Source of the DNA: Bacteroidota bacterium
GTDB lineage: Bacteria > Bacteroidota > Bacteroidia > SXHM01
Direction of reading: 5' to 3'
NCBI GenBank assembly: GCA_947478465.1
Contig: CANJWH010000001.1
Span: 27,447-91,446 of the forward strand
DNA: 64,000 nt
Position numbers and translations under genes: made by a program. Shown here piece after piece: positions 3,027 to 53,831 of this stretch (the stretch's first letter is position 1; each line of letters starts with the position of its first letter). The notes under the pieces were generated by a model. It was not told the origin of the DNA, searched no databases, and saw nothing but the letters and a program-made list of their open reading frames with translations.

Positions 3027-4199
3027 ATGCTCAATAATATCAACGGTTTCAGAAGTTTTTTACCCAAAGCAACAGCTTTCTCGCTCGCATTCATTTTTTC
3101 AGCTTTTTTAGCTTTTGCCCACGAAGACGAACACAAAGCCTCAGCGGAAGCTGCTCATGATACTATCGAAACTGTTCAACATGATAGTATTGCAACGGAA
3201 GCACATGCCGAAGCAGAACATCACGGAGAAGAAAAATTTGATGCCGGAAAAATGATCATGGAGCACGTTGCCGATGCACACGACTGGCACTTGTGGGGAC
3301 ACACTTCTATTCCGCTTCCTGTTATTATTTATTCAAGCGAAAAAGGCTTGACTGTTTTCTCTTCTTCAAAATTTAACCACGGTCATGATGATTACAATGG
3401 CTACCGTTTAGAGCACAACACAGTTGTTGCCGTAAATGAAGACGGAACGGTTAACGAAGAATTATCGGCTAATCTCTGGGATATTTCCATCACCAAAAAC
3501 ACTGCATCATTATTCATCAGCCTTTTAATAATGCTGTTTGTTTTTATTTCTGCAGCAAAAGCATACACCCGCAACCCGAACACAGCACCTAAAGGTTTGC
3601 AGGCTATTATTGAGCCTATCATTATTTTTGTTCGTGATGATATTGCAAAGGCAAGCATTGGTCCGAAATACAAAAAATTCATGCCTTTCCTGCTTACTGT
3701 GTTCTTCTTTATCTGGATTAATAATCTGTTGGGGCTTGTTCCTATCTTCCCGGGAGGTGCTAACCTTACAGGAAACATAGCAGTTACATTATCACTTGCT
3801 GTTTTCACATTCATTATTATCCTTATTAACTCAAACAAAAACTACTGGATACACGTTTTTGCAATGCCGGGCGTTCCGGTTTGGGTTCTGTTTCTTTTAA
3901 CACCCATTGAGATATTGGGCGTGTTCCTTCGTCCGTTTGTATTGATGGTCCGACTTTTTGCAAACATGACCGCAGGTCACATTATTGCACTTTCTTTCTT
4001 CAGCCTTATCTTCATTTTCGGTGAAATGAATGTGGTTGCCGGTTACGGAGTTTCCATTTTCTCACTTGCGTTTACATTATTTATGACCTGTCTTGAATTG
4101 CTGGTAGCATTCCTGCAGGCTTACGTTTTTACTCTTCTCTCAGCTATTTACTTCGGCTCGGCTGTAGAAGAGCATCACCATGCCGAAGAACATCACTAA
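3027..4199 (+). CDS. atpB: F0F1 ATP synthase subunit a
   Basis: 390 aa. Conserved RLFANMTAGH motif (essential Arg of subunit a), long N-terminal extension typical of Bacteroidota, multi-TM. Confidence 0.9.
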   Translation: MLNNINGFRSFLPKATAFSLAFIFSAFLAFAHEDEHKASAEAAHDTIETVQHDSIATEAHAEAEHHGEEKFDAGKMIMEHVADAHDWHLWGHTSIPLPVIIYSSEKGLTVFSSSKFNHGHDDYNGYRLEHNTVVAVNEDGTVNEELSANLWDISITKNTASLFISLLIMLFVFISAAKAYTRNPNTAPKGLQAIIEPIIIFVRDDIAKASIGPKYKKFMPFLLTVFFFIWINNLLGLVPIFPGGANLTGNIAVTLSLAVFTFIIILINSNKNYWIHVFAMPGVPVWVLFLLTPIEILGVFLRPFVLMVRLFANMTAGHIIALSFFSLIFIFGEMNVVAGYGVSIFSLAFTLFMTCLELLVAFLQAYVFTLLSAIYFGSAVEEHHHAEEHH

Positions 4200-8331: not shown

Positions 8332-9219
8332 ATGGAAGAAAAACTCCAGCGCATTTATGATTTTGTAGGTCCGGGATTGTATGTGGTAGCTATTACCAGT
8401 ATGATTACAGAAGGAATTGTGCTGCGCTGGATGAAAGAGAATGCCGATGTGAAACATGGCATTGTCAGCATGGTTTCCGGTCTGTTTGCATTCGGCAGCA
8501 TTGCCGTGGCGCAGGTGCTTTACAACTTTGCCATCATCAGTCTGTGTTGGCAATACCGTGTTTTTACGTTGGGTTTTGAGTGGTATGTGTGGGTAGCCTG
8601 TTTCCTGTTATATGACTTTATGTTTTACTGGCTGCACCGGTGGTCGCACGAGGTGAGGTTGCTGTGGTGCATACACAGCGTGCACCATACCAGCGAGGAG
8701 ATGCGCCTTACCTCCGGAATACGCGGAAGTATGTTTGATTTTGTGCTTTCGCCTGTGTTTTTTATCTGGATGCCGCTGCTGGGGTTTCATCCCATGCTGT
8801 TTCTGATTACCGAAACCATTTCAAAGTTGTGGGGATTGTTTGAGCACGTGAATATCCGATTTGTAAACCGCTTGCCGGTGTTGGATAAAATTCTGATCAC
8901 TCCTTCCGTGCATCGTGTACATCATGGCAAGGAAATAAAATATCTCGATACCAATTATTCAGAAATGTTTTTGTTTTGGGACCATTTGTTTGGCACCTAC
9001 ACACCCGAACAAGAATTGCCAACATATGGTGTTTTAAAGGGCACAGACCCTCGTAACTTCAGCGAGAGCCAGTTCGGATCGTTTCGCGATCTTTGGAGCG
9101 ATTTAAAGCGTTCTCCTTCGCTTGCGGTTAAGTTGAAGTATCTGTTCCTTCCTCCGGGCTGGAGCCATGATGGGGAAGACAGGAGAACGAAGACCTTGAA
9201 ACGTGCTTTATCAGCTTAG
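8332..9219 (+). CDS. Sterol desaturase / fatty-acid hydroxylase superfamily membrane protein
   Basis: 295 aa. Histidine boxes HRWSHE, HSVHH and HRVHHG on a multi-TM scaffold. Confidence 0.75.
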   Translation: MEEKLQRIYDFVGPGLYVVAITSMITEGIVLRWMKENADVKHGIVSMVSGLFAFGSIAVAQVLYNFAIISLCWQYRVFTLGFEWYVWVACFLLYDFMFYWLHRWSHEVRLLWCIHSVHHTSEEMRLTSGIRGSMFDFVLSPVFFIWMPLLGFHPMLFLITETISKLWGLFEHVNIRFVNRLPVLDKILITPSVHRVHHGKEIKYLDTNYSEMFLFWDHLFGTYTPEQELPTYGVLKGTDPRNFSESQFGSFRDLWSDLKRSPSLAVKLKYLFLPPGWSHDGEDRRTKTLKRALSA

Positions 9220-9261
9220 TAACACACAGCTCCGTAAAGCCGCTGCAGCGATTAAAGCTAA

Positions 9262-9545
9262 CTCCACAGCACTCCGTACATATTTTTAGTGCCGTAAACT
9301 TACTATTAGGAATTCTAACGTTAACGCCAGAATACTCCGTACATTTTTTATACTGTGTGAAGAATAGACCATATAGTTACGTACATATATTAAGCTCTGT
9401 GATGTATATATTACGGAACTACGTACATATATACAATCCTAAAACTGTTGTTTCCATTATCGTATTCTAAACGCGCATTACTTCCGTACATATATTTTAA
9501 GCTATAAAGCAACATTCTTAATATTCCGTACATATTTTATATATA
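9262..9545. repeat. Array of at least 6 direct copies (plus 1 inverted copy) of (A/T)CCGTACATAT(A/T)TTT in a 355-bp intergenic region
   Basis: Copies start near 9274, 9337, 9379, 9423, 9484 and 9526 (spacings 63/42/44/61/42 bp, about multiples of 21). An inverted copy lies at 9400-9420. Confidence 0.6.
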
Positions 9546-9574
9546 TTCGCAGGCATGTTTTCAATATAAACACT

Positions 9575-10258
9575 ATGCTCAGACGTAACCGCATACCCGA
9601 AAAAGACACTGATTTCAGCAATTACATCTACCGCACCACTGCTGCTTTGCTTAGTGGAACACCGCCAACATGGCAACGTTTTTATATTCGTGAAGAAGCC
9701 AAAAATAAATGGATTGAATTTATGAACCTGTGGGACGACTTATATCCCAAATATACCGACTTGAGCAAGCGGACCATGGCGGTAACTGCCGAAAAGAACA
9801 GAATAAAAAAAGAGTTCACCCGTTTTGCACAGCCACTTCTTAACCAAATGAGTGTGAGTTATGCAACCGAGAGCGACCGCCTTACTTTTAACCTGCGTAA
9901 AAAAGAACGCCCCTACCGCAAACGCGGAAAAATTGAAGATTCTCCTGAAGCTCATGTTCAATCCATTGGTGGTGGTCAACTGAAAATACGTGTACGAAGA
10001 GCAAATCAGGAAGGAAGGCGTGGTAAACATCCGCTTGCCGATGTGGTTGAGGTGCGTTACTGGTACGGACATCGTATGCTTACCATGCCGCTTGAGCAAT
10101 GCGTGAACTCCTTTACCACCGGTAAAACCTATTTTATAATGAAAATGCCTGATGAAGCAATTGGCAAATGGGCCTATTTTTATTTTAGATGGGCAATTCC
10201 GGGGAAAGAAGAAAACAGTAGTCCTTATAGTCAAATGCAGATAGCGGTGCTGGGGTAA
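9575..10258 (+). CDS. Hypothetical protein (227 aa), no recognised domain
   Basis: Clean ORF directly downstream of the repeat array. Basic and aromatic-rich, no signal peptide or TM. Confidence 0.5.
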   Translation: MLRRNRIPEKDTDFSNYIYRTTAALLSGTPPTWQRFYIREEAKNKWIEFMNLWDDLYPKYTDLSKRTMAVTAEKNRIKKEFTRFAQPLLNQMSVSYATESDRLTFNLRKKERPYRKRGKIEDSPEAHVQSIGGGQLKIRVRRANQEGRRGKHPLADVVEVRYWYGHRMLTMPLEQCVNSFTTGKTYFIMKMPDEAIGKWAYFYFRWAIPGKEENSSPYSQMQIAVLG

Positions 10259-10288
10259 AATTTCTACCTTCGCGCTTTCTTTTTCGCT

Positions 10289-11638
10289 ATGACAAAAAAC
10301 TTTTCTCCGCTTACCGCTATTTCACCTGTTGACGGGCGTTACCATAAACAGACTGCCGAACTGGCTCAATACTTTTCTGAATACGCACTACTTAAATATC
10401 GCGTAACAGTTGAACTCTATTATTTCTGCGCCCTGAGCGAAATTCCATTGCCAGCGCTGAAAAAGGTGACTAAAAAAATGCGCTTTGAGCTAGACGGACT
10501 AAGTATGGATTTCAACGAGAAAGACGCAGCACGCATCAAGGAAATTGAAAAAACCACCAACCACGATGTTAAGGCCGTTGAATATTTTGTGAAAGAAAAG
10601 CTGGAAAAGCTGGGCCTGAAAAACGAAAAAGAATTTGTGCACTTTGGCCTTACCTCGCAGGACATCAATAACACCGCCTTCCCACTAATGATGAAAATGG
10701 CTTCGCTGGCTGTTTTTATTCCGCATATAAAAGCCATCATCACCAAATTGAATGTACTGGCAAAAGACTGGAAAAATGTTTCCATGCTTGCCCATACCCA
10801 CGGACAACCTGCCTCCCCTACCCGACTGGGCAAGGAAATAACCGTCTTTGCGGAGCGTCTGGAAAATCAGTTGAAACAGTTTGAAGCCATTCCCTACACC
10901 GCAAAATTTGGTGGCGCCACCGGAAACTTCAATGCGCATTATGTGGCATATCCCGATGTGAACTGGAAAAAATTTGCTGATGATTTTTTGAATCATTATC
11001 TGACTTTACAGCGCCAGCAAACCACAACACAAATCGAACACTACGACAATCTTGCTGCGTGGTGCGATGCACAAAAACGCATTAACACTATCCTGATTGA
11101 TTTCTGCCGCGATATGTGGGCCTATATCTCCATGGATTATTTTAAGCAAACCATCAAAGCCGGTGAAGTGGGTTCATCAGCCATGCCACATAAAGTAAAC
11201 CCTATTGACTTTGAAAACGCAGAAGGTAACCTAGGTTTTGCGAATGCTATGTTTGAGCATTTTTCGGCCAAGCTTCCTGTTTCGCGTTTGCAACGCGATC
11301 TTACCGACAGTACAGTGTTACGAAATATAGGTATGCCTTTAGCACACACCTTAATTGCTTTCAAATCCATACAAAAAGGCTTAGACAAATTAGTCCTGAA
11401 CAAAGAAGCTATTGATCGCGACCTTGAAAATAACTGGGCTGTTGTAGCCGAAGCTTTGCAAACCATTCTGCGCAGAGAAGGCTACAAAAACCCTTACGAA
11501 ACACTGAAAGACCTTACCCGCAAAAACGAAAAAATAAGCAAAGAGAGCATTGCCGCATTTATCAAATCGCTCAACGTTTCTGATAAAGTGAAAAAGACAA
11601 TGCTGGCGATTACGCCCTTTAATTATACCGGGAAATAG
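10289..11638 (+). CDS. purB: Adenylosuccinate lyase
   Basis: 449 aa. Fumarate-lyase signature SSAMPHKVNPIDFENAEG. Confidence 0.9.
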   Translation: MTKNFSPLTAISPVDGRYHKQTAELAQYFSEYALLKYRVTVELYYFCALSEIPLPALKKVTKKMRFELDGLSMDFNEKDAARIKEIEKTTNHDVKAVEYFVKEKLEKLGLKNEKEFVHFGLTSQDINNTAFPLMMKMASLAVFIPHIKAIITKLNVLAKDWKNVSMLAHTHGQPASPTRLGKEITVFAERLENQLKQFEAIPYTAKFGGATGNFNAHYVAYPDVNWKKFADDFLNHYLTLQRQQTTTQIEHYDNLAAWCDAQKRINTILIDFCRDMWAYISMDYFKQTIKAGEVGSSAMPHKVNPIDFENAEGNLGFANAMFEHFSAKLPVSRLQRDLTDSTVLRNIGMPLAHTLIAFKSIQKGLDKLVLNKEAIDRDLENNWAVVAEALQTILRREGYKNPYETLKDLTRKNEKISKESIAAFIKSLNVSDKVKKTMLAITPFNYTGK

Positions 11639-27504: not shown

Positions 27505-27514
27505 GATTTATAAA

Positions 27515-27672
27515 TTGTAATGAGCGGTAAAGAAATTGTAACGGGCGGTAGCATTTTTGTAACGGACGGTATAAAATTTATAACGGGTGGTATATAAACA
27601 ATAACGCAGGAACGAGAAATTGCAACATGGAGTTGAGATAGTGTAAAGCATGTTCAATCTATTGTAACATTG
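27515..27672. repeat. 21-bp phased direct-repeat (iteron/operator-like) array, consensus TTGTAACGGGCGGTA
   Basis: Good copies at 27515, 27536, 27557 and 27578 (spacing exactly 21 bp). Degenerate copies at 27599, 27620 and 27662. Confidence 0.65.
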
Positions 27673-32720: not shown

Positions 32721-32971
32721 GCATTTTTAGCCCATTTCACTCTTCTGAGGTATTCAGACCCTCTTTTTTAGTAAAAATTCATGTACGGCTCTTAAAAAGA
32801 GCGCTCTCTGAAACCCTTATTCTATAAGGATTTCAGAGCCTCGTATTAGACGTTTTACGTTAAAATATGTTAAGATTTGACCAAAACGGGCAAATTTCAA
32901 AACCACAGGTTGAAAAAGGTCTAACTTCGTCACCCGAAAATTTTAAGCTTTACAAAATCAAAAATCTCCAA

Positions 32972-47422: not shown

Positions 47423-47885
47423 GGTTGTGGTGTGTATATCAGTCAGTTAAATTTTATTCACAAGTTTACTGTTGAAATCCATTTTTGATGTTGAAAACTT
47501 TGTGCTAATTTTTTTGGTTTATTACTTTAAAAATGTGCCTTATAAAACCTTATCAATCTACAATGAATTATTTTTCAAAATAACTCAAATTATTTACACG
47601 AAGTAATTAACCGGTAAAAGTATTTTTTTGTTAACTATTTATCAATACCTATCTTTATCAACAGTATGTTAATTACTTCCTAATTTTCTGATTTTAAAAT
47701 AACTGTATTATTTATTAATGTTAATAGAATGTTTACTATTTATAAATATTTTCATTAACAAGAAAAACTCAAACTATTTATTGACAGTATTAACAAGCTA
47801 ATAATAAATACAATATTCTTTTTTATAAAAGTATTTATTATTAATTGATTTGTGAATTGTGGTTTTGGTGGTGTTTGTGTTTGCC

Positions 47886-47893
47886 TAACTTTG
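47886..47893 (+). promoter_or_regulatory. Candidate -7 box TAACTTTG for the MORN-protein/HK operon
   Basis: TAnnTTTG match 15 nt before the ATG at 47909, at the end of a 480-bp AT-rich region. Confidence 0.35.
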
Positions 47894-47908
47894 TCAAAAA
47901 TTATTGAA

Positions 47909-49453
47909 ATGAGGTTTCTTTTGGTTCTTGGTTCTTGGTTATTAATTCTTACTTCTGCATTTGCCCAGTCTGCAGATGGCGATGGCTACAAAAAATTCTA
48001 TTATCCAGATGGAACCATCCAAAGCGAAGGAACAATTAAAAATGGAAAACCTGACGGATATTGGAAAACTTATTATAAAAATGGAAAACTAAAATCAGAA
48101 GGTAACCGTCTGGATTACAAATTGGATAGCCTATGGAAATTTTATAATGAAGCAGGAAAAACAACCTTAGAAATAAATTATAAAGCAGAGAAAAAACAAG
48201 GTGATAGAAAAACATATGCTGTTTTAGGTTGGTTGGAGAAAAAAGAGTTGTTCAGCAATGATACGCTGCAAGGTAACTCAGAATATTATTTTGAAAATGG
48301 AAAACTATGGAAAACCATTCCATTTGAAAAAGGAAAAACTATTGGTTTTGGTTATGAATATGCTGCAGATGATGGAAGAATAATAACCATTACAGAGTTT
48401 AAAAATGGTTATCAGACTAAGTTGGAAAAAATAAACGAGAAAGATAAATTCAACCAGAAACAAGGTATATGGAAAGAATTTTATCCCGATACATTTTCGG
48501 TTGATAAAGGAAAGCGATTACATATTGAAGGTAAATACCTGAACGACAAGAAAAACGGGTATTTTAAAGAATATGACCCCGAAGGCAACCTAATTACAAC
48601 AACAAAGTATAAAGACGGCATTTTAGAGCCTGAACCGGCAGAATTAGCCAAATTAGATATTAAAAAGGATTTTTATCCTGATGCAACAGAGAAATTCAGA
48701 GGAAGTTATAATAAAGGAGTACCGGAAGGAGTCCATCGTTTTTACAATGAAAAAGGTGAAGTAGATAACTCAAAAATTTTCAGGAGAGGTATATTAGTTG
48801 GAGAAGGAATTTATGATGATCAAGGTATAAAACAGGGATTATGGAAAGAGTATTACGATAGTGGTGAATTAAGGTCAGAAGGAAAATATGAAGCAGGAAC
48901 AAGAGTGGGAGAATGGAAGTTTTATTATAAAAATGGAAAACTTGATCAGAAAGGGAAATATATAAAAGGAAAACCTGAAGGAGATTGGCGTTGGTTTTAT
49001 GAAAATGGAAACCCCTGGAGAGAAGAAATTTATTCTAAAGGAAAAGAAGATGGCCCCGCAACCGAATATAATGATACTGGATTAATAGTAGCAAAAGGTG
49101 AATTTATAGAAGGAGAAAAAGAAGGATTGTGGAATTATCAATATGGTGATTTCAGGGAAGAAGGAAGTTATAAAGATGGACAACAGGATGGTGAGTGGAA
49201 GAGTTGGTATAAAAATGGAGAATTAAGTTTTGAGGGGAAATACATAAACGGTTTAGAAGATGGTAAACATGTTTGGTATTATGATAATGGAAAGGTTAGA
49301 GAAGAAGGAAAATATATTCTCGGAAGCCGCGAAGGAGTGTGGAAAAAGTATGACCCCGAAGGTTTAGAAGCGATTGAAATAACCTACGAGAATAACAAAG
49401 AAATTAAGGTTGACGGTATAAAAGTTAAGCCGTCAGATGAAGAACAGGAATAA
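47909..49453 (+). CDS. Secreted MORN-repeat (YwqK-like) protein
   Basis: Signal peptide. At least 12 repeats of G-x-x-G-x-W-K-x-YY-x-NGKL-x-x-EG. Confidence 0.75.
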   Translation: MRFLLVLGSWLLILTSAFAQSADGDGYKKFYYPDGTIQSEGTIKNGKPDGYWKTYYKNGKLKSEGNRLDYKLDSLWKFYNEAGKTTLEINYKAEKKQGDRKTYAVLGWLEKKELFSNDTLQGNSEYYFENGKLWKTIPFEKGKTIGFGYEYAADDGRIITITEFKNGYQTKLEKINEKDKFNQKQGIWKEFYPDTFSVDKGKRLHIEGKYLNDKKNGYFKEYDPEGNLITTTKYKDGILEPEPAELAKLDIKKDFYPDATEKFRGSYNKGVPEGVHRFYNEKGEVDNSKIFRRGILVGEGIYDDQGIKQGLWKEYYDSGELRSEGKYEAGTRVGEWKFYYKNGKLDQKGKYIKGKPEGDWRWFYENGNPWREEIYSKGKEDGPATEYNDTGLIVAKGEFIEGEKEGLWNYQYGDFREEGSYKDGQQDGEWKSWYKNGELSFEGKYINGLEDGKHVWYYDNGKVREEGKYILGSREGVWKKYDPEGLEAIEITYENNKEIKVDGIKVKPSDEEQE

Positions 49454-49458
49454 TAAAG

Positions 49459-52400
49459 ATGATTAAGAGTTTAGAAAAGAAAATCTACGACTGGTCTAAA
49501 GACAGGCTCTTAATAACCGACAACATAGCTTTATACAGATTCTACCTTGCGGCAGTATTTGTTCTTGTTCCCTTTTTCACAATTCTTCTTTACGATGGCA
49601 AAATCTTGCCTATATATTCCAATATTTTTGCATCACTTGCTTCGGGATTAATACTTTTTATCAGTTATAAATCTGAAAAAGTAAAGAATAATCTTAGAGA
49701 TATTATTCACCTTCTTTTTTATAGTCTGGCGGTTTATATTTCAACTCTGGCTTATTATACAAACTATACACTCGAGTTTTCTTTTGGTTTACTGGCAATG
49801 CTATTGTTCAGCGAAATGATTATTGATACAACCAAAAGACTTTTTTGGTTTAGTGTTCCTGTTATTGTCTACAACACAGTATTATTAAGTCTTTCAGATG
49901 CAACACACATCAAAACTATATATATAATTTGTGCATTGGTAGTATTTTCTTTGTTTGTATATTTTGTTTTGCTCACCAAGATTAAATTACAAAAATCACT
50001 GGAAGAAAGCGAGAAAAAATTCAGAACAGTTATTAGTTTAAGCCCTGTAATAATCTGGGGAATTGATAAAAACGGAATAATTACTATTTCGGAAGGAAAA
50101 GGTTTAAAGTCACTTGGATATAAAGCAGGCGAAATTGTGGGCAAATCTGTGTTTGATATTAATAAAGATTTACCCGAAGCTCTCACCAACATAAAAAGAG
50201 CTTTGTCTGGAGAAACATTTGCTGCCGCTTTATGGATAGCTGATGCTTATTTGGAAACATGGTACAATCCGGTGATGGACGAAAACGGAGAGTTTGCCGG
50301 AGTTATAGGAGTAACTACTGATATTACAGAGAGAAAAATATCAGAACAGAAAATTTTACAGAACGAAGAAAAATTCCGCCTTCTTTTTTCAAAAGCGAAT
50401 GATTCGATTTTCATTATGGATAATGAAATATTTATTGATTGTAATGAAAAAACCAAGATAATGTATGGTTGTGAAGAAAAAGAGATTCTTGGAAAAACAC
50501 CGTTCTTTTTTTCGCCCGAAAAACAACCTGACGGAAGAGATTCTGCAGAAAAAAGCAAAGAAAAAATTAGTGCAGTACTTGAAGGAAAACCACAATTTTT
50601 TTATTGGAAACATAAAACAAAAAACGGAACCCTGTTTGATGCAGAAGTAAGCCTTAATCCTTTTAAAATTGATGGAAAAACACTTATTCAGGCTATTGTT
50701 CGCGACATCAGTGATAGAAAGGAAGCTGAGCGATTAATTAAAGAAAGCGAAGAGCGGTTCCGCCTACTTTCTGAGGCTACAATGGAAGGAATTGTAACTA
50801 TCGAAAACGGAATAATAGTAGATGCAAATGATCAGTATGCGCGCTTACATGGATTTATTAACAAAGAAGAAGTAGTAGGCAAAAAGATAGAAGGGTTTAT
50901 TACCCCTGACTTTATTGATATTGCTCAACACAATTTAGACAGCGGTTATCATCGTCCTTTTGTTATTAAAGCGCTTAAACGAGACGGCTCTGCGTTTACA
51001 GTAGAGGTTCGCGGACAAACCATTCCATGGTATGGAAAGACTATAAAAATTGCAACATTTACGGATATAACCGAACGCATAAGCTATGAGAATGAGTTGC
51101 GCGAAAGTCAGGAACGTTACCGTAATCATATAGAATCCTTGCCCGATGGAATTTTGATTATTGAAAACAACAAAGTGGTTTTTGCTAATGCAAGTGCCCT
51201 AAAAATACTGGGAACAACAAGCGCAAAAATTAAGCGTTCGGCACTTAGTGATTTTGTTTTACCTGAATACAAAAAAGAATATGAAAAGCTTTTTTCTAGC
51301 GTTCGGGATGACAAAGCCACAGAGTTTATTGAAATAAAAATAAGGCGCCACCTCGACAATAAAATTGCTGACATACAAGCCAACGGACGTCTTGTTAAAT
51401 TTAAAGGAGAGGAATCAATACAACTAGTTGTAAGCGATATTTCAACGCGTAAAGCGTTGGCCAGGGAACAAATGCGCGCGCAGATTGCTGAAGAAACAAA
51501 TTTACAATTACAGCGCGAAATTGTTGAGCGCAAGAAAACACAAACAAAACTGGCCACAACACAAAAATTCAACAAGAGTATCATTGAAAGCTCTTTGGAT
51601 ATGATTGTTGCAACGGATATAGATAGCCGTATTAACGAATTTAATATTGCCGCCCAAAAAACTTTTGGCTACAATAGAGAAGAGGTAATAGGGAAGCCGG
51701 TTTCTATTATTTATGCTGATGAAGAAGAATATAAACAGGTGCAGGATGTTTTACATAAAGAGGGCGTGTGTGCTCAGGAGATAGTTAACAAACGTAAAGA
51801 CGGCTCTTTGTTTATTTCATTTTTATCTGCTTCAACTCTTAAAGATGAAGACGGAAAAGTGTTTGGGGCAATGGGTGTTTCGCGTGATATTACTGCAGCA
51901 AAAAAAGCGGAAGAAGAATTAAGATTAAGCGAAGAACGCCATCGTGCGGTTTACGACCAGGCTTATATAGGTATTGCTCGTATTGGAAGGGTGGGTAGAT
52001 TCTTATTGGTAAACCAACGTCTGTGTGATATGTTTGGATACGCTTCTGAAGAGCTATACAAAAAAGCATTCTTTGAATTAACACACCCATCAGAAGTAGG
52101 AGAGAGCCTGAAAAAATGGGATGCTTTGTTAAGTGGCGAAATAAAAAATTTCACTTCAGAACAAATTTATCTGCACAAAAACGGTTCGCAGATTTATGCA
52201 AACCTTACGGTTTCGTTGGTGCGCGACACAACCGGTTCCCCCAACTATTATGTTGCCGTATTTGAAGATATAACTGTGCGCAAGCAACAGGAAAAAGAAT
52301 TGCAGGAATCTCTGAAAGAAAAAGAGGTGCTTCTGAAAGAAGTGCACCATCGCGTGAAAAATAATATGCAGGTTATATCCAGTATATTAAATCTGCAATC

Positions 52401-52920
52401 GTCATATATAAAAGACGAAGCGGCTATTGAAATGTTGAAAGAAAGTCAGGACAGAATAAAGTCAATGGCTTTTATTCACGAGAGCTTGTATCAGGGAAAA
52501 AATCTTTCGCATGTTAAGTTCTCTGAATATGTTCGCAACCTTGTGGGCAACCTTTTCCATACCTACGGCATAAATAAAAAAGGATTAAAGCTCAAGTTTG
52601 ATTTAGATGAAGTGTTCCTGAATTTGGATACTTCTATTCCATGTGGCTTAATACTCAATGAACTTATTTCAAACGCCCTTAAATATGCATTTATTGATAG
52701 AGGGGCCGGGACACTTTCTGTAACGTTGAAAAAATTAGATGGAGGAAAATTAAAGCTTGAAATAGCTGATGATGGAAAAGGTTTCCCAAAAGAAATCAAT
52801 TGGAAAGATACAGAATCACTTGGCCTGCAATTAGTGGTAACACTTGCCGGACAAATACGTGGCGATATTCAAATGGAAACAAAAAAAGGAACTACATTTA
52901 CCATCGTTTTTAACGAATAA
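49459..52920 (+). CDS. Membrane multi-PAS sensor histidine kinase (HisKA_2/HWE-type)
   Basis: 1153 aa. About 6 N-terminal TM helices, at least 5 PAS-like modules, H-box HHRVKNNMQVISSILNLQ, C-terminal HATPase_c. Confidence 0.85.
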   Translation: MIKSLEKKIYDWSKDRLLITDNIALYRFYLAAVFVLVPFFTILLYDGKILPIYSNIFASLASGLILFISYKSEKVKNNLRDIIHLLFYSLAVYISTLAYYTNYTLEFSFGLLAMLLFSEMIIDTTKRLFWFSVPVIVYNTVLLSLSDATHIKTIYIICALVVFSLFVYFVLLTKIKLQKSLEESEKKFRTVISLSPVIIWGIDKNGIITISEGKGLKSLGYKAGEIVGKSVFDINKDLPEALTNIKRALSGETFAAALWIADAYLETWYNPVMDENGEFAGVIGVTTDITERKISEQKILQNEEKFRLLFSKANDSIFIMDNEIFIDCNEKTKIMYGCEEKEILGKTPFFFSPEKQPDGRDSAEKSKEKISAVLEGKPQFFYWKHKTKNGTLFDAEVSLNPFKIDGKTLIQAIVRDISDRKEAERLIKESEERFRLLSEATMEGIVTIENGIIVDANDQYARLHGFINKEEVVGKKIEGFITPDFIDIAQHNLDSGYHRPFVIKALKRDGSAFTVEVRGQTIPWYGKTIKIATFTDITERISYENELRESQERYRNHIESLPDGILIIENNKVVFANASALKILGTTSAKIKRSALSDFVLPEYKKEYEKLFSSVRDDKATEFIEIKIRRHLDNKIADIQANGRLVKFKGEESIQLVVSDISTRKALAREQMRAQIAEETNLQLQREIVERKKTQTKLATTQKFNKSIIESSLDMIVATDIDSRINEFNIAAQKTFGYNREEVIGKPVSIIYADEEEYKQVQDVLHKEGVCAQEIVNKRKDGSLFISFLSASTLKDEDGKVFGAMGVSRDITAAKKAEEELRLSEERHRAVYDQAYIGIARIGRVGRFLLVNQRLCDMFGYASEELYKKAFFELTHPSEVGESLKKWDALLSGEIKNFTSEQIYLHKNGSQIYANLTVSLVRDTTGSPNYYVAVFEDITVRKQQEKELQESLKEKEVLLKEVHHRVKNNMQVISSILNLQSSYIKDEAAIEMLKESQDRIKSMAFIHESLYQGKNLSHVKFSEYVRNLVGNLFHTYGINKKGLKLKFDLDEVFLNLDTSIPCGLILNELISNALKYAFIDRGAGTLSVTLKKLDGGKLKLEIADDGKGFPKEINWKDTESLGLQLVVTLAGQIRGDIQMETKKGTTFTIVFNE

Positions 52921-52932
52921 AAAATACCAGAC

Positions 52933-53685
52933 ATGTCGAAAATTAACATTCTTGTGGTGGAAGACGAAAGCATTGTTGCTAAAGATATTCAGAATAGCCT
53001 CCGCAAACTTGGTTATAATGTGCCGCTAACAATTTCTTCGGGCGAAGAAGCTATTGTTGCTGCAGAAGAACATAAACCGGATTTAGTATTAATGGATATT
53101 ATGCTGAAAGGCGAACTCAGTGGTATAGAAGCTGCCGACCAGATACGCCAACGCTTTCAAATTCCGGTTATTTATCTTACAGCTTATGCAGATGAAAGCA
53201 CACTGGCTAAAGCAAAAATCACAGAACCTTATGGCTATATCATTAAACCGTTTAAGGAAATTGATTTACATACCACCATTGAAATGGCGCTTTATAAACA
53301 TGGTAAAGAAGCGCAGGTTAGAAAAGAACGTGACTTGTATTCCTCCATTGTTCGTGACACCAATTCAAACGATTCTATTTTTGTAAAATCAAACTCTCGT
53401 TTGGTAAAAGTAAAATTAGCCGATATCATGTATGTTGAGGCGCTGAAAGATTATGTGATCATTCACTGTGTTGGTGCAAAATACACCATACACTCCACCA
53501 TGAAAGATATTCAGGAAAACCTGCAGGATAAGGAGTTTATTCGCGTACACCGTTCTTTTATAGTGCGCATTGATAAAATAGCTGCTATTGATTACCCCAA
53601 CCTGGTAATGGAAGATGATAAAAAACACATTCCTATTGGTGGGTCGTACAAAGATGATTTAACAAATCGGTTAAAATTTGTTTAA
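52933..53685 (+). CDS. LytTR-family two-component response regulator
   Basis: 250 aa. REC domain (phospho-Asp context LVLMDIML) plus a C-terminal LytTR DNA-binding domain. Confidence 0.85.
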   Translation: MSKINILVVEDESIVAKDIQNSLRKLGYNVPLTISSGEEAIVAAEEHKPDLVLMDIMLKGELSGIEAADQIRQRFQIPVIYLTAYADESTLAKAKITEPYGYIIKPFKEIDLHTTIEMALYKHGKEAQVRKERDLYSSIVRDTNSNDSIFVKSNSRLVKVKLADIMYVEALKDYVIIHCVGAKYTIHSTMKDIQENLQDKEFIRVHRSFIVRIDKIAAIDYPNLVMEDDKKHIPIGGSYKDDLTNRLKFV

Positions 53686-53759: not shown

Positions 53760-53831
53760 GGTCCTGTAGTACAACGGATAGTATGGGGGTTTCCGAAACC
53801 CTTGATCCAGGTTCGATTCCTGGCGGGACCA
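53760..53831 (+). tRNA. tRNA-Arg (anticodon CCG)
   Basis: Manual cloverleaf: acceptor ggtcctg/cgggacc, D-stem gtac/gtat, anticodon stem ggggt/accct, loop ttCCGaa, T-arm ccagg-ttcgatt-cctgg. 72 nt; CCA not encoded. Confidence 0.85.

Follow-up and report, generated by a model that had tools for sequence, protein, structure and literature searches.

A conserved, helically phased array of candidate protein-binding sites with a 21-bp period upstream of an uncharacterised gene family in Bacteroidota

Positions 9231 to 9538 of the window, by which is meant the whole 64,000-nucleotide stretch of DNA analysed here, probably form a helically phased array of candidate sequence-specific protein-binding sites that controls the sigma-A promoter of the adjacent gene, which encodes a protein of 227 residues. 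This reading, derived from sequence comparison, is based on the exact 21-bp register of the repeated cores, on the retention of cores and spacing among diverged relatives and on the recurrence of arrays with the same period throughout the protein family.

The array lies in the intergenic gap between a fatty-acid hydroxylase gene (8332-9219) and the 227-residue ORF (9575-10258), which is 355 bp long, as the first-pass annotation had given it. The cores are 14 bp long, asymmetric and all in one orientation; six are intact and one is decayed. They are listed here together with the downstream elements, with distances counted from the ATG unless another reference point is named.

9231-9244, + strand: decayed seventh unit, TCCGTAAAGCCGCT / TCCGTAAAG, in the 21-bp register, at -344
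9273-9286, + strand: core 1, TCCGTACATATTTT, at -302
9336-9349, + strand: core 2, TCCGTACATTTTTT, at -239, its 9-mer with one mismatch
9378-9391, + strand: core 3, TACGTACATATATT, at -197
9404-9417, - strand: inverted degenerate copy, TCCGTA-ATATATAC, which lacks 1 nt
9420-9433, + strand: core 4, TACGTACATATATA, at -155
9483-9496, + strand: core 5, TCCGTACATATATT, at -92, or about -71 to -58 relative to the predicted site of transcription start
9525-9538, + strand: core 6, TCCGTACATATTTT, at -50, within the promoter spacer, about -29 to -16 relative to the predicted start
9542-9549, + strand: predicted Bacteroidota sigma-A -7 box, TATATTCG, its column conserved in 11 loci
9554-9574, + strand: predicted short A-rich 5' leader, TTTTCAATATAAACAC, column conservation 0.9-1.0 in orthologues
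9575-10258, + strand: gene of the uncharacterised family, 227 aa; the protein model has an N-terminal three-helix bundle, a basic linker and a C-terminal FN3-like sandwich

A scan of both strands of the 64 kb revealed five exact copies of the 9-mer CGTACATAT, all on the + strand (9275, 9380, 9422, 9485 and 9527), and one copy with a single mismatch, CGTACATTT, on the same strand at 9338. No further exact copy occurs on either strand beyond the array at 9275-9535, the chance expectation being 0.11 per strand per 64 kb, and the array motif is the only 9-mer with at least four copies within 400 bp, besides a coding repeat at 48 kb. The six-copy motif array seen in the first-pass annotation is thus real, and the motif search proposed there, carried out over the 64 kb, gave no indication of a motif scattered outside the array. 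The core start-to-start distances are 63, 42, 42, 63 and 42 bp, all of them exact multiples of 21; the naive chance probability of five such spacings is about 1.6e-7. The phasing by 21 had been recognised correctly, whereas the spacings of 44 and 61 bp given earlier were wrong, the fourth copy having been put at 9423 instead of 9421. Two cores, at 9379 and 9421, begin with ACGT and not with the CCGT ascribed to the motif. The inverted copy placed at 9400-9420 is indeed a degenerate core on the - strand, but it has lost one nucleotide and is missing at the matching register in the closest relatives, L001 and L002; it is species-specific and probably non-functional. At the position that matches the decayed 9231 unit of the window, the register table of L001 contains an intact core, TCCGTACATGTATT.

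To assess conservation, 11 orthologous loci from MAGs of freshwater Bacteroidota (the window, five genome loci, metagenome loci and L034; protein identity 57-100%) were each laid out in 21-bp rows anchored at the ATG. The 14-bp core TCCGTACATATnTT is almost invariant and in register in all 11. Six to seven rows per locus read TCCGTACATATnTT, interleaved with one or two unrelated or weakly related rows, and the final two cores are located at -48 and -90 from the ATG in 11 of 11 loci. Among some 60 core-to-core intervals the sole non-multiple of 21 is one of 64 bp in L002. The 63/42 spacing pattern of the window is also present in L001 and L002, and core spacing is perfectly regular at 42 bp in L003-L005 (genome scan), L019 and L020. 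A logo of 69 cores from the 11 loci carries 1.5-2.3 bits per position over TCCGTACATATnTT; most spacer positions carry 0.0-0.8 bits, largely less than 0.5. In the adjacent genes dS between these genomes is 0.85-1.4. With dS around 1 and diverged spacers, unconstrained bases should be randomised, and the cores and their spacing are therefore under purifying selection; the same dS in the adjacent gene argues against the orthologous loci being recent horizontal copies. Helical phasing together with purifying selection on the cores is what a cooperative multi-site binding array predicts, in agreement with the original proposal of a same-face array that did not arise by chance. An unconserved AT stretch, which a comparison of relatives could have disclosed, is not what was found, as only the spacers have diverged.

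The array clearly stems from a tandem repeat of 21 bp. The sequence TCCACAC...TTCTAAC survives in the interleaved rows of L017 and L019, and in several relatives TTCTAAC repeats every 21 bp; these remnants identify the array as an old repeat in which only every second or third ancestral unit has retained a strong core. Such an origin, the breakage of assemblies within the array and the free variation of the spacers would be compatible with a functionless minisatellite, born by slippage and now eroding. This explanation is scarcely credible, however, because, across 11 genomes with a dS of about 1, the cores at six to seven positions hardly vary and the bases beside them are randomised, because indels are almost absent from the array across the relatives, and because the same period, with unrelated sequences, is found at the same place relative to the gene in nine lineages. 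The footprint and its recurrence in nine lineages effectively refute neutral decay.

The spacers of L003-L005 and L020 show a further regularity. They belong to two alternating types that are near reverse complements, TAAACATTGAAATTCTAA and TTAGAAGTTCAATGTTCTAA (for example, L004 2700-2960), and the cores are flanked by inverted repeats of 15-17 bp, with a super-period of 84 bp. These inverted repeats are not conserved in the window, L001 or L019.

Three nucleotides downstream of the final core lies the conserved box TA(T/C)(A/C)TT(C/T)G, which in L014 is a perfect TACCTTTG. The sigma-A -7 box of Bacteroidota has the consensus TAnnTTTG and spans -12 to -5 (PMC9723704). Transcription is predicted to start near 9552-9556, which would give an A-rich leader of 20 nt, and the proximal core would then be situated between the predicted -33 and -7 elements, at approximately -29 to -16; a conserved -33 element is not visible in the aligned orthologous loci. 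Other promoter types were considered and rejected. For an ECF-sigma promoter, with the CGTA of the core as the -10 element, the conserved TTCTAAC of L004 is 4 or 25 nt from CGTA, not 16-17, and for a sigma-54 promoter with an enhancer there is no conserved GG-N10-GC between the array and the ATG.

In the model we favour, an oligomerising DNA-binding protein would bind cooperatively to the cores, which line one face of the DNA over about 300 bp. Given the position of the proximal core between the -33 and -7 elements, occlusion or remodelling of the promoter is the simplest outcome of full occupancy; control of the gene would most likely be switch-like, and the many same-face sites would produce a steep response. 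The binder may be a dedicated, unlinked regulator that uses direct repeats spaced by 21 bp, of the LytTR or the AraC/XylS type, or it may be the product of the adjacent gene; we give most weight to an unlinked regulator outside the LytTR type. Arrays of at least 10 units are far above the number used by ordinary bacterial activators and repressors, which counts against this model; moreover, activators do not typically bind at -29 to -16, and 300 bp of sites are more than a simple repressor would require.

The 227-residue ORF is a real gene, with a dN/dS of 0.06-0.13 that places it under purifying selection. Searches of Pfam, NCBIfam, PHROGs, PADLOC and PDB sequences returned nothing significant, which agrees, as far as these collections go, with the earlier statement that it has no recognisable family, but the gene is no orphan: a profile search of 1.84 billion cluster representatives identified a large conserved family of 660 clusters (50% identity), nearly all with 220-250 residues. 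FN3 domains were the sole matches in fold searches with the protein model, which contains neither a winged-helix domain nor an evident ribbon-helix-helix domain. Identity as a defence system was rejected on the lack of a PADLOC match. A phage or plasmid origin was likewise rejected, since the family gene had no match in 72,556 plasmids, 50,697 phages or IMG/VR. The gene context in the window is one of housekeeping functions (atpAG, the fatty-acid hydroxylase, purB and fbp), and synteny is kept in the relatives. An all-against-all comparison of the neighbours at 15 loci linked the family gene alone, with no conserved partner gene.

The family protein diverges faster than its neighbours; compared with L005, identity is 76%, as opposed to 97% for purB and about 92-95% for the hydroxylase. 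Among the relatives L001-L005 and L034, purB falls into two allele classes, with 95-97% and about 79% identity, which suggests a recombination mosaic at the locus corresponding to window positions 9575-11638.

Nine lineages of the family, with protein identities of 24-100% (distant members were fetched at 24-37%), were examined, and an array with a 21-bp period was present just upstream of the family gene in all nine. In the distant loci the 400-600 bp upstream of the gene contain no credible gene and hold a tandem array of period 21. A period of 21 (or 42, 63 or 84) was recovered by TRF or autocorrelation in L032, L036, L039, L040/45, L042/46, L044/47, L048 and L049. The units are as follows.

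L032: unit GTCTAGYGTTGCTTAAGACTT, 8.3 copies
L036: unit GTTCCGCCATGAGGCGGAGAG, 10.9 copies
L039: unit GACAGCGCCTCTCTGTCGAAC, 10.9 copies
L040/L045: unit AAACTAAAGTTCATAAAAACC, degenerate; TRF finds 3.2 copies in L040
L042: unit AAGTTATAACGCCAGCAAAAT, 9.2 copies
L046: unit resembling that of L042, 8.0 copies
L047 (L044 is truncated): unit ..AGTCATGACTT.., about 7 copies in L047
L048: unit AGAAGGTTCTTCTAACCTAAA, 6.6-9.6 copies
L049-L051: unit CAGAGAGCAATAGTCTGCGGG, at least 5.3 copies; the contigs stop within the array

Two lineages are poorly countable; in the others an array has approximately 7-13 units. Across the lineages the array ends about 30-150 bp before the ATG. In every locus but the window, the most 21-bp-periodic 210-bp stretch of the locus is the array itself (z 5-23 against the rest of the locus), and in the distant loci, the truncated L044 aside, 47-151 bp separate the end of this stretch from the ATG. 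From lineage to lineage the units have unrelated sequences, some palindromic and others asymmetric. Units that are palindromic or form alternating inverted repeats occur in L036, L039, L004 and L042, where a contribution of hairpins or cruciforms is conceivable. The replacement of the unit sequence in each lineage with retention of the geometry implies that the function lies in the geometry itself and that there is a binder with which the arrays co-evolve.

Several metagenome contigs end in or beside the arrays (L044, L048, L049-L051, L009 and L025). The arrays thus appear to break short-read assemblies, and family genes would often be expected at contig ends. Additional elements precede the array, some 400-500 nt upstream of the family gene, in L042 (about 3500-3640), L046 (about 2500-2640) and L047 (about 2400-2600). 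They include a promoter-like TATATTCGCA, clear in L046 and L047 and degenerate in L042, a hydrophobic ORF of about 33 residues, and a hairpin, GAGCTGCAAC-N9-GTTGCAGCTC, with compensatory changes between the loci.

With regard to the identity of the binder, it is possible, if doubtful, that the protein recognises its own array. The basic protein, with its helical and FN3-like parts, would bind the array as an autoregulating nucleoprotein filament, perhaps with a structural role in the chromosome. Array and gene would then be a self-contained cis/trans pair and the protein, polymerising on the array, a new kind of sequence-specific DNA-binding protein, a proposal that we regard as tentative. Specificity would co-evolve lineage by lineage, and the pair would correspond to ParR-parC or Rep-iteron, but would be solitary and lie on the chromosome. 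In favour of self-recognition, gene and array are the sole conserved pair over nine lineages, the unit sequence shifts with the protein lineage, and the number of sites is like that of centromere or iteron arrays. The window protein is basic (net charge +15, pI 9.9; family median pI 9.2), as is its linker RKKERPYRKRGK, which is predicted to be disordered, and the arrays without the gene in L011 and L026, described below, would be extra binding loci. Arguing against this possibility are the lack of a known DNA-binding domain in the Pfam, NCBIfam, PADLOC and PDB sequence searches and the confinement of the fold matches to FN3 domains. In addition, one third of the family members are not basic, among them P0012, which has a pI of 6.4 yet possesses an array, and co-divergence of gene and array is equally expected under plain vertical descent.

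Arrays of the same core also occur apart from the gene. A metagenome scan for two cores 42 bp apart yielded 26 loci, most of which are chance matches, eukaryotic microsatellites or coding repeats. A genuine core array was found in L009/L025, with spacings of 42, 42, 42, 63 and 42 bp, in a contig that ends just past the array. Another, a TCCGTACATAT array with spacings of 84, 105 and 42 bp, occupies positions 628-872 of L011 (also L026); downstream come about 170 nt free of ORFs and then the 3' end of a convergent enoyl-CoA hydratase gene, and the contig has no family gene. Since this core also forms arrays where no family gene is adjacent, the array is not strictly a promoter element of that gene. 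The L011/L026 array may be a remnant, the promoter of a small RNA or a binding locus that stands by itself, and the candidate core binder may have more than one target.

A second, unrelated array of 21-bp direct repeats, wTTGTAACGGGCGGTA plus 6 nt in four to five units, lies at 27509-27600 of the window and adjoins the start codon (27504, - strand) of a gene for a basic protein of 114 residues, the sequence of which looks HTH-like with a coiled coil. Its core, TTGTAACG, is similar to the repeat unit of the family arrays of L042 and L046. Next to it, an operon codes for an HTH-like protein of 116 residues and a protein of 311 residues without a Pfam match; the latter was considered as a family member and rejected, having no detectable homology.

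The stretch of L011 without a gene that follows the array is also one of the observations that would fit an RNA element, in which the array is transcribed as a leader or small RNA and its motifs or hairpins bind an RNA-binding protein in the manner of a CsrB-like sponge. The units of L036 and L039 contain hairpin-forming palindromes, the spacers of L004 alternate as inverted repeats that place the cores in loops (fold z = -2.6), and the L036 array gives a weak CsrB-like match (E = 0.066; 21 bits, compared with a gathering score of 71). We nevertheless consider an RNA element improbable. No signal of RNA structure was obtained for the window array (z = +0.2 sense, -1.8 antisense) or for the orthologues L001 (z = -1.1) and L019 (z = +1.05), so that the hairpins are not conserved, and Rfam had no match in the window region. 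In RNA there would be no reason for spacings in exact multiples of 21 nt, and the conserved promoter box is located downstream of the array.

Further candidates were rejected. A coding repeat, 21 bp corresponding to seven codons, is contradicted by the lack of an ORF of more than 40 residues across the window array and by stops in the sense frames of the L004 and L032 units. Transposon ends would have an inverted partner array, of which there is none; the sole minus-strand CGTACAT is at 32781. CRISPR arrays have repeats of 23-47 bp, unique spacers of similar length, and cas genes or a leader. Here the conserved core has 14 bp, and in several relatives the spacers recur as two types in alternation; the neighbouring genes examined in the window and the fetched loci included no cas genes.

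The first-pass annotation had suggested, as a speculation, that the cores are related to half-sites of the LytTR type. The cores would then be bound by a LytTR-type response regulator, for instance the one encoded in the window, which would activate the gene. The window does encode a REC-LytTR regulator (52933-53685) together with a PAS histidine kinase (49459-53685 for both). LytTR regulators are numerous in Bacteroidota, however, and the presence of one carries little weight. A degenerate consensus of LytTR sites is [TA][AC][CA]GTTN[AG][TG]. The core sequence T(A/C)CGTACAT agrees with it in 8 of 9 positions, a consensus loose enough for chance matches, and in 7 of 9 with the PlnC/PlnD repeat. 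The consensus of that repeat is TACGTTAAT (PMC2714321). LytTR sites consist of a 9-bp repeat and a 12-bp spacer, which together make up 21 bp, and LytTR regulators use direct repeats with this period, the spacing being conserved while the sequence drifts (PMC6193735, PMC2714321). The period of the array and its conserved spacing with drifting sequence correspond to these properties. More generally, the sites of AgrA, PlnC/PlnD, ComE and HdrR/BrsR resemble the array in being asymmetric same-face direct repeats of period 21 in which strong and degenerate units alternate.

Against a LytTR regulator stands the arrangement of the strong cores, which are 42 or 63 bp apart; a pair of 9-bp repeats with the 12-bp (11-13 bp) separation of LytTR sites is absent from the window. 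Weak half-sites at +21 were sought as partners and rejected: in a scan of the window the core matrix scores no higher there than at other offsets, and recognisable weak units at +21 (TCCACAC...) are kept only in L017 and L019. Known LytTR sites comprise one or two pairs immediately upstream of -35, unlike the 6-13 units that here extend over 200-300 bp into the promoter spacer, as far as -16. The proximal core, at about -29 to -16 of the predicted promoter, does not lie upstream of the -35 (here -33) position. The regulator of the window is encoded 43 kb from the array, and no LytTR gene was found near family genes among the called genes with Pfam hits in the fetched family loci. Finally, the palindromic units of other lineages (AGTCATGACT, CCGCCATGAGGCGG) are unlike LytTR half-sites. 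For the suggested link, the geometry and the 7/9 likeness to a half-site are suggestive and the regulator gene is present, but the 21-bp pair and a linkage to family loci have not been found; control by LytTR is unlikely.

The histidine kinase that precedes the REC-LytTR gene is a multi-PAS HisKA_2 protein, and a gene for a MORN-repeat protein lies before it (47852-53685 for the three); a tRNA gene follows the regulator gene at 53760-53831. The MORN-repeat protein gene is the source of a ATGGAAAAC repeat cluster and of strong GC and AT skew at 48-50 kb.

AraC/XylS regulators bind asymmetric sites of about 17 bp that are arranged as direct repeats at 21 bp, next to or overlapping the promoter, as in araI1-I2 and at Pm for XylS. 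In these features the array is alike, but AraC/XylS regulators usually have two sites and not an array, and no AraC-family gene is linked here.

The geometry of the array is also that of iterons and of partition centromeres. The iterons of theta plasmids (pSC101, F, R6K, RK2) are direct repeats of 17-22 bp with a period of 21-22 bp beside a gene of about 230-330 residues. Partition arrays include parC, bound by ParR of R1, sopC, with 43-bp repeats bound by SopB of F, and tubC, bound by TubR, in which the array is on the promoter of the adjacent gene. Replication-origin iterons or a plasmid-type partition centromere integrated in the chromosome would account for roughly 6-13 direct repeats of period 21-22 next to a gene, and the underlying unit of the array, 21 bp, fits the iteron range. 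As in parC, sopC and tubC, the many tandem repeats overlap the predicted promoter of the adjacent gene; a cis array would co-evolve with a linked gene, and cooperative binding into a higher-order complex is a candidate common feature. Such an origin is nonetheless very unlikely. The context is chromosomal, with housekeeping genes that are syntenic in the relatives, and the neighbouring genes that were checked do not include one for Rep, ParA, ParM or TubZ. Unlike partition systems, the array and its gene are solitary, with no NTPase partner, and the family is absent from the plasmid and phage collections searched (72,556 and 50,697 entries). The model of the 227-residue protein has no recognised ribbon-helix-helix or helix-turn-helix fold and no winged helix of the Rep type. 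Neither an AT-rich unwinding element nor DnaA boxes were identified. A replication origin was rejected as such, because GC skew does not turn at the site and DnaA boxes were not noticed by eye. The term iteron-like used in the first-pass annotation is therefore apt for the geometry but not for the function, a Rep gene, a plasmid context and replication-origin features all being absent.

How Bacteroidota control transcription is poorly charted, and on bacterial chromosomal promoters large phased arrays of binding sites are rare. Phased multi-site operators as such are already known. A conserved array with a 21-bp period and up to about 13 units, tied to a single uncharacterised family and built from lineage-specific units, appears to be undescribed; a literature search on the motif and on 21-bp arrays in Bacteroidota found nothing relevant. 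Taken together, the comparisons point to an undescribed gene-control module in Bacteroidota. The arrays appear to explain recurrent assembly breaks in metagenomes and would provide a natural set of orthogonal operator-binder pairs for Bacteroidota synthetic biology. If the binder is LytTR- or AraC-like, the array could show how an ultrasensitive switch is built from many same-face sites. If instead the product of the gene binds its own array, this could reveal a DNA-binding fold of a new kind and a module of gene and array that regulates itself, with representatives in hundreds of Bacteroidota lineages.
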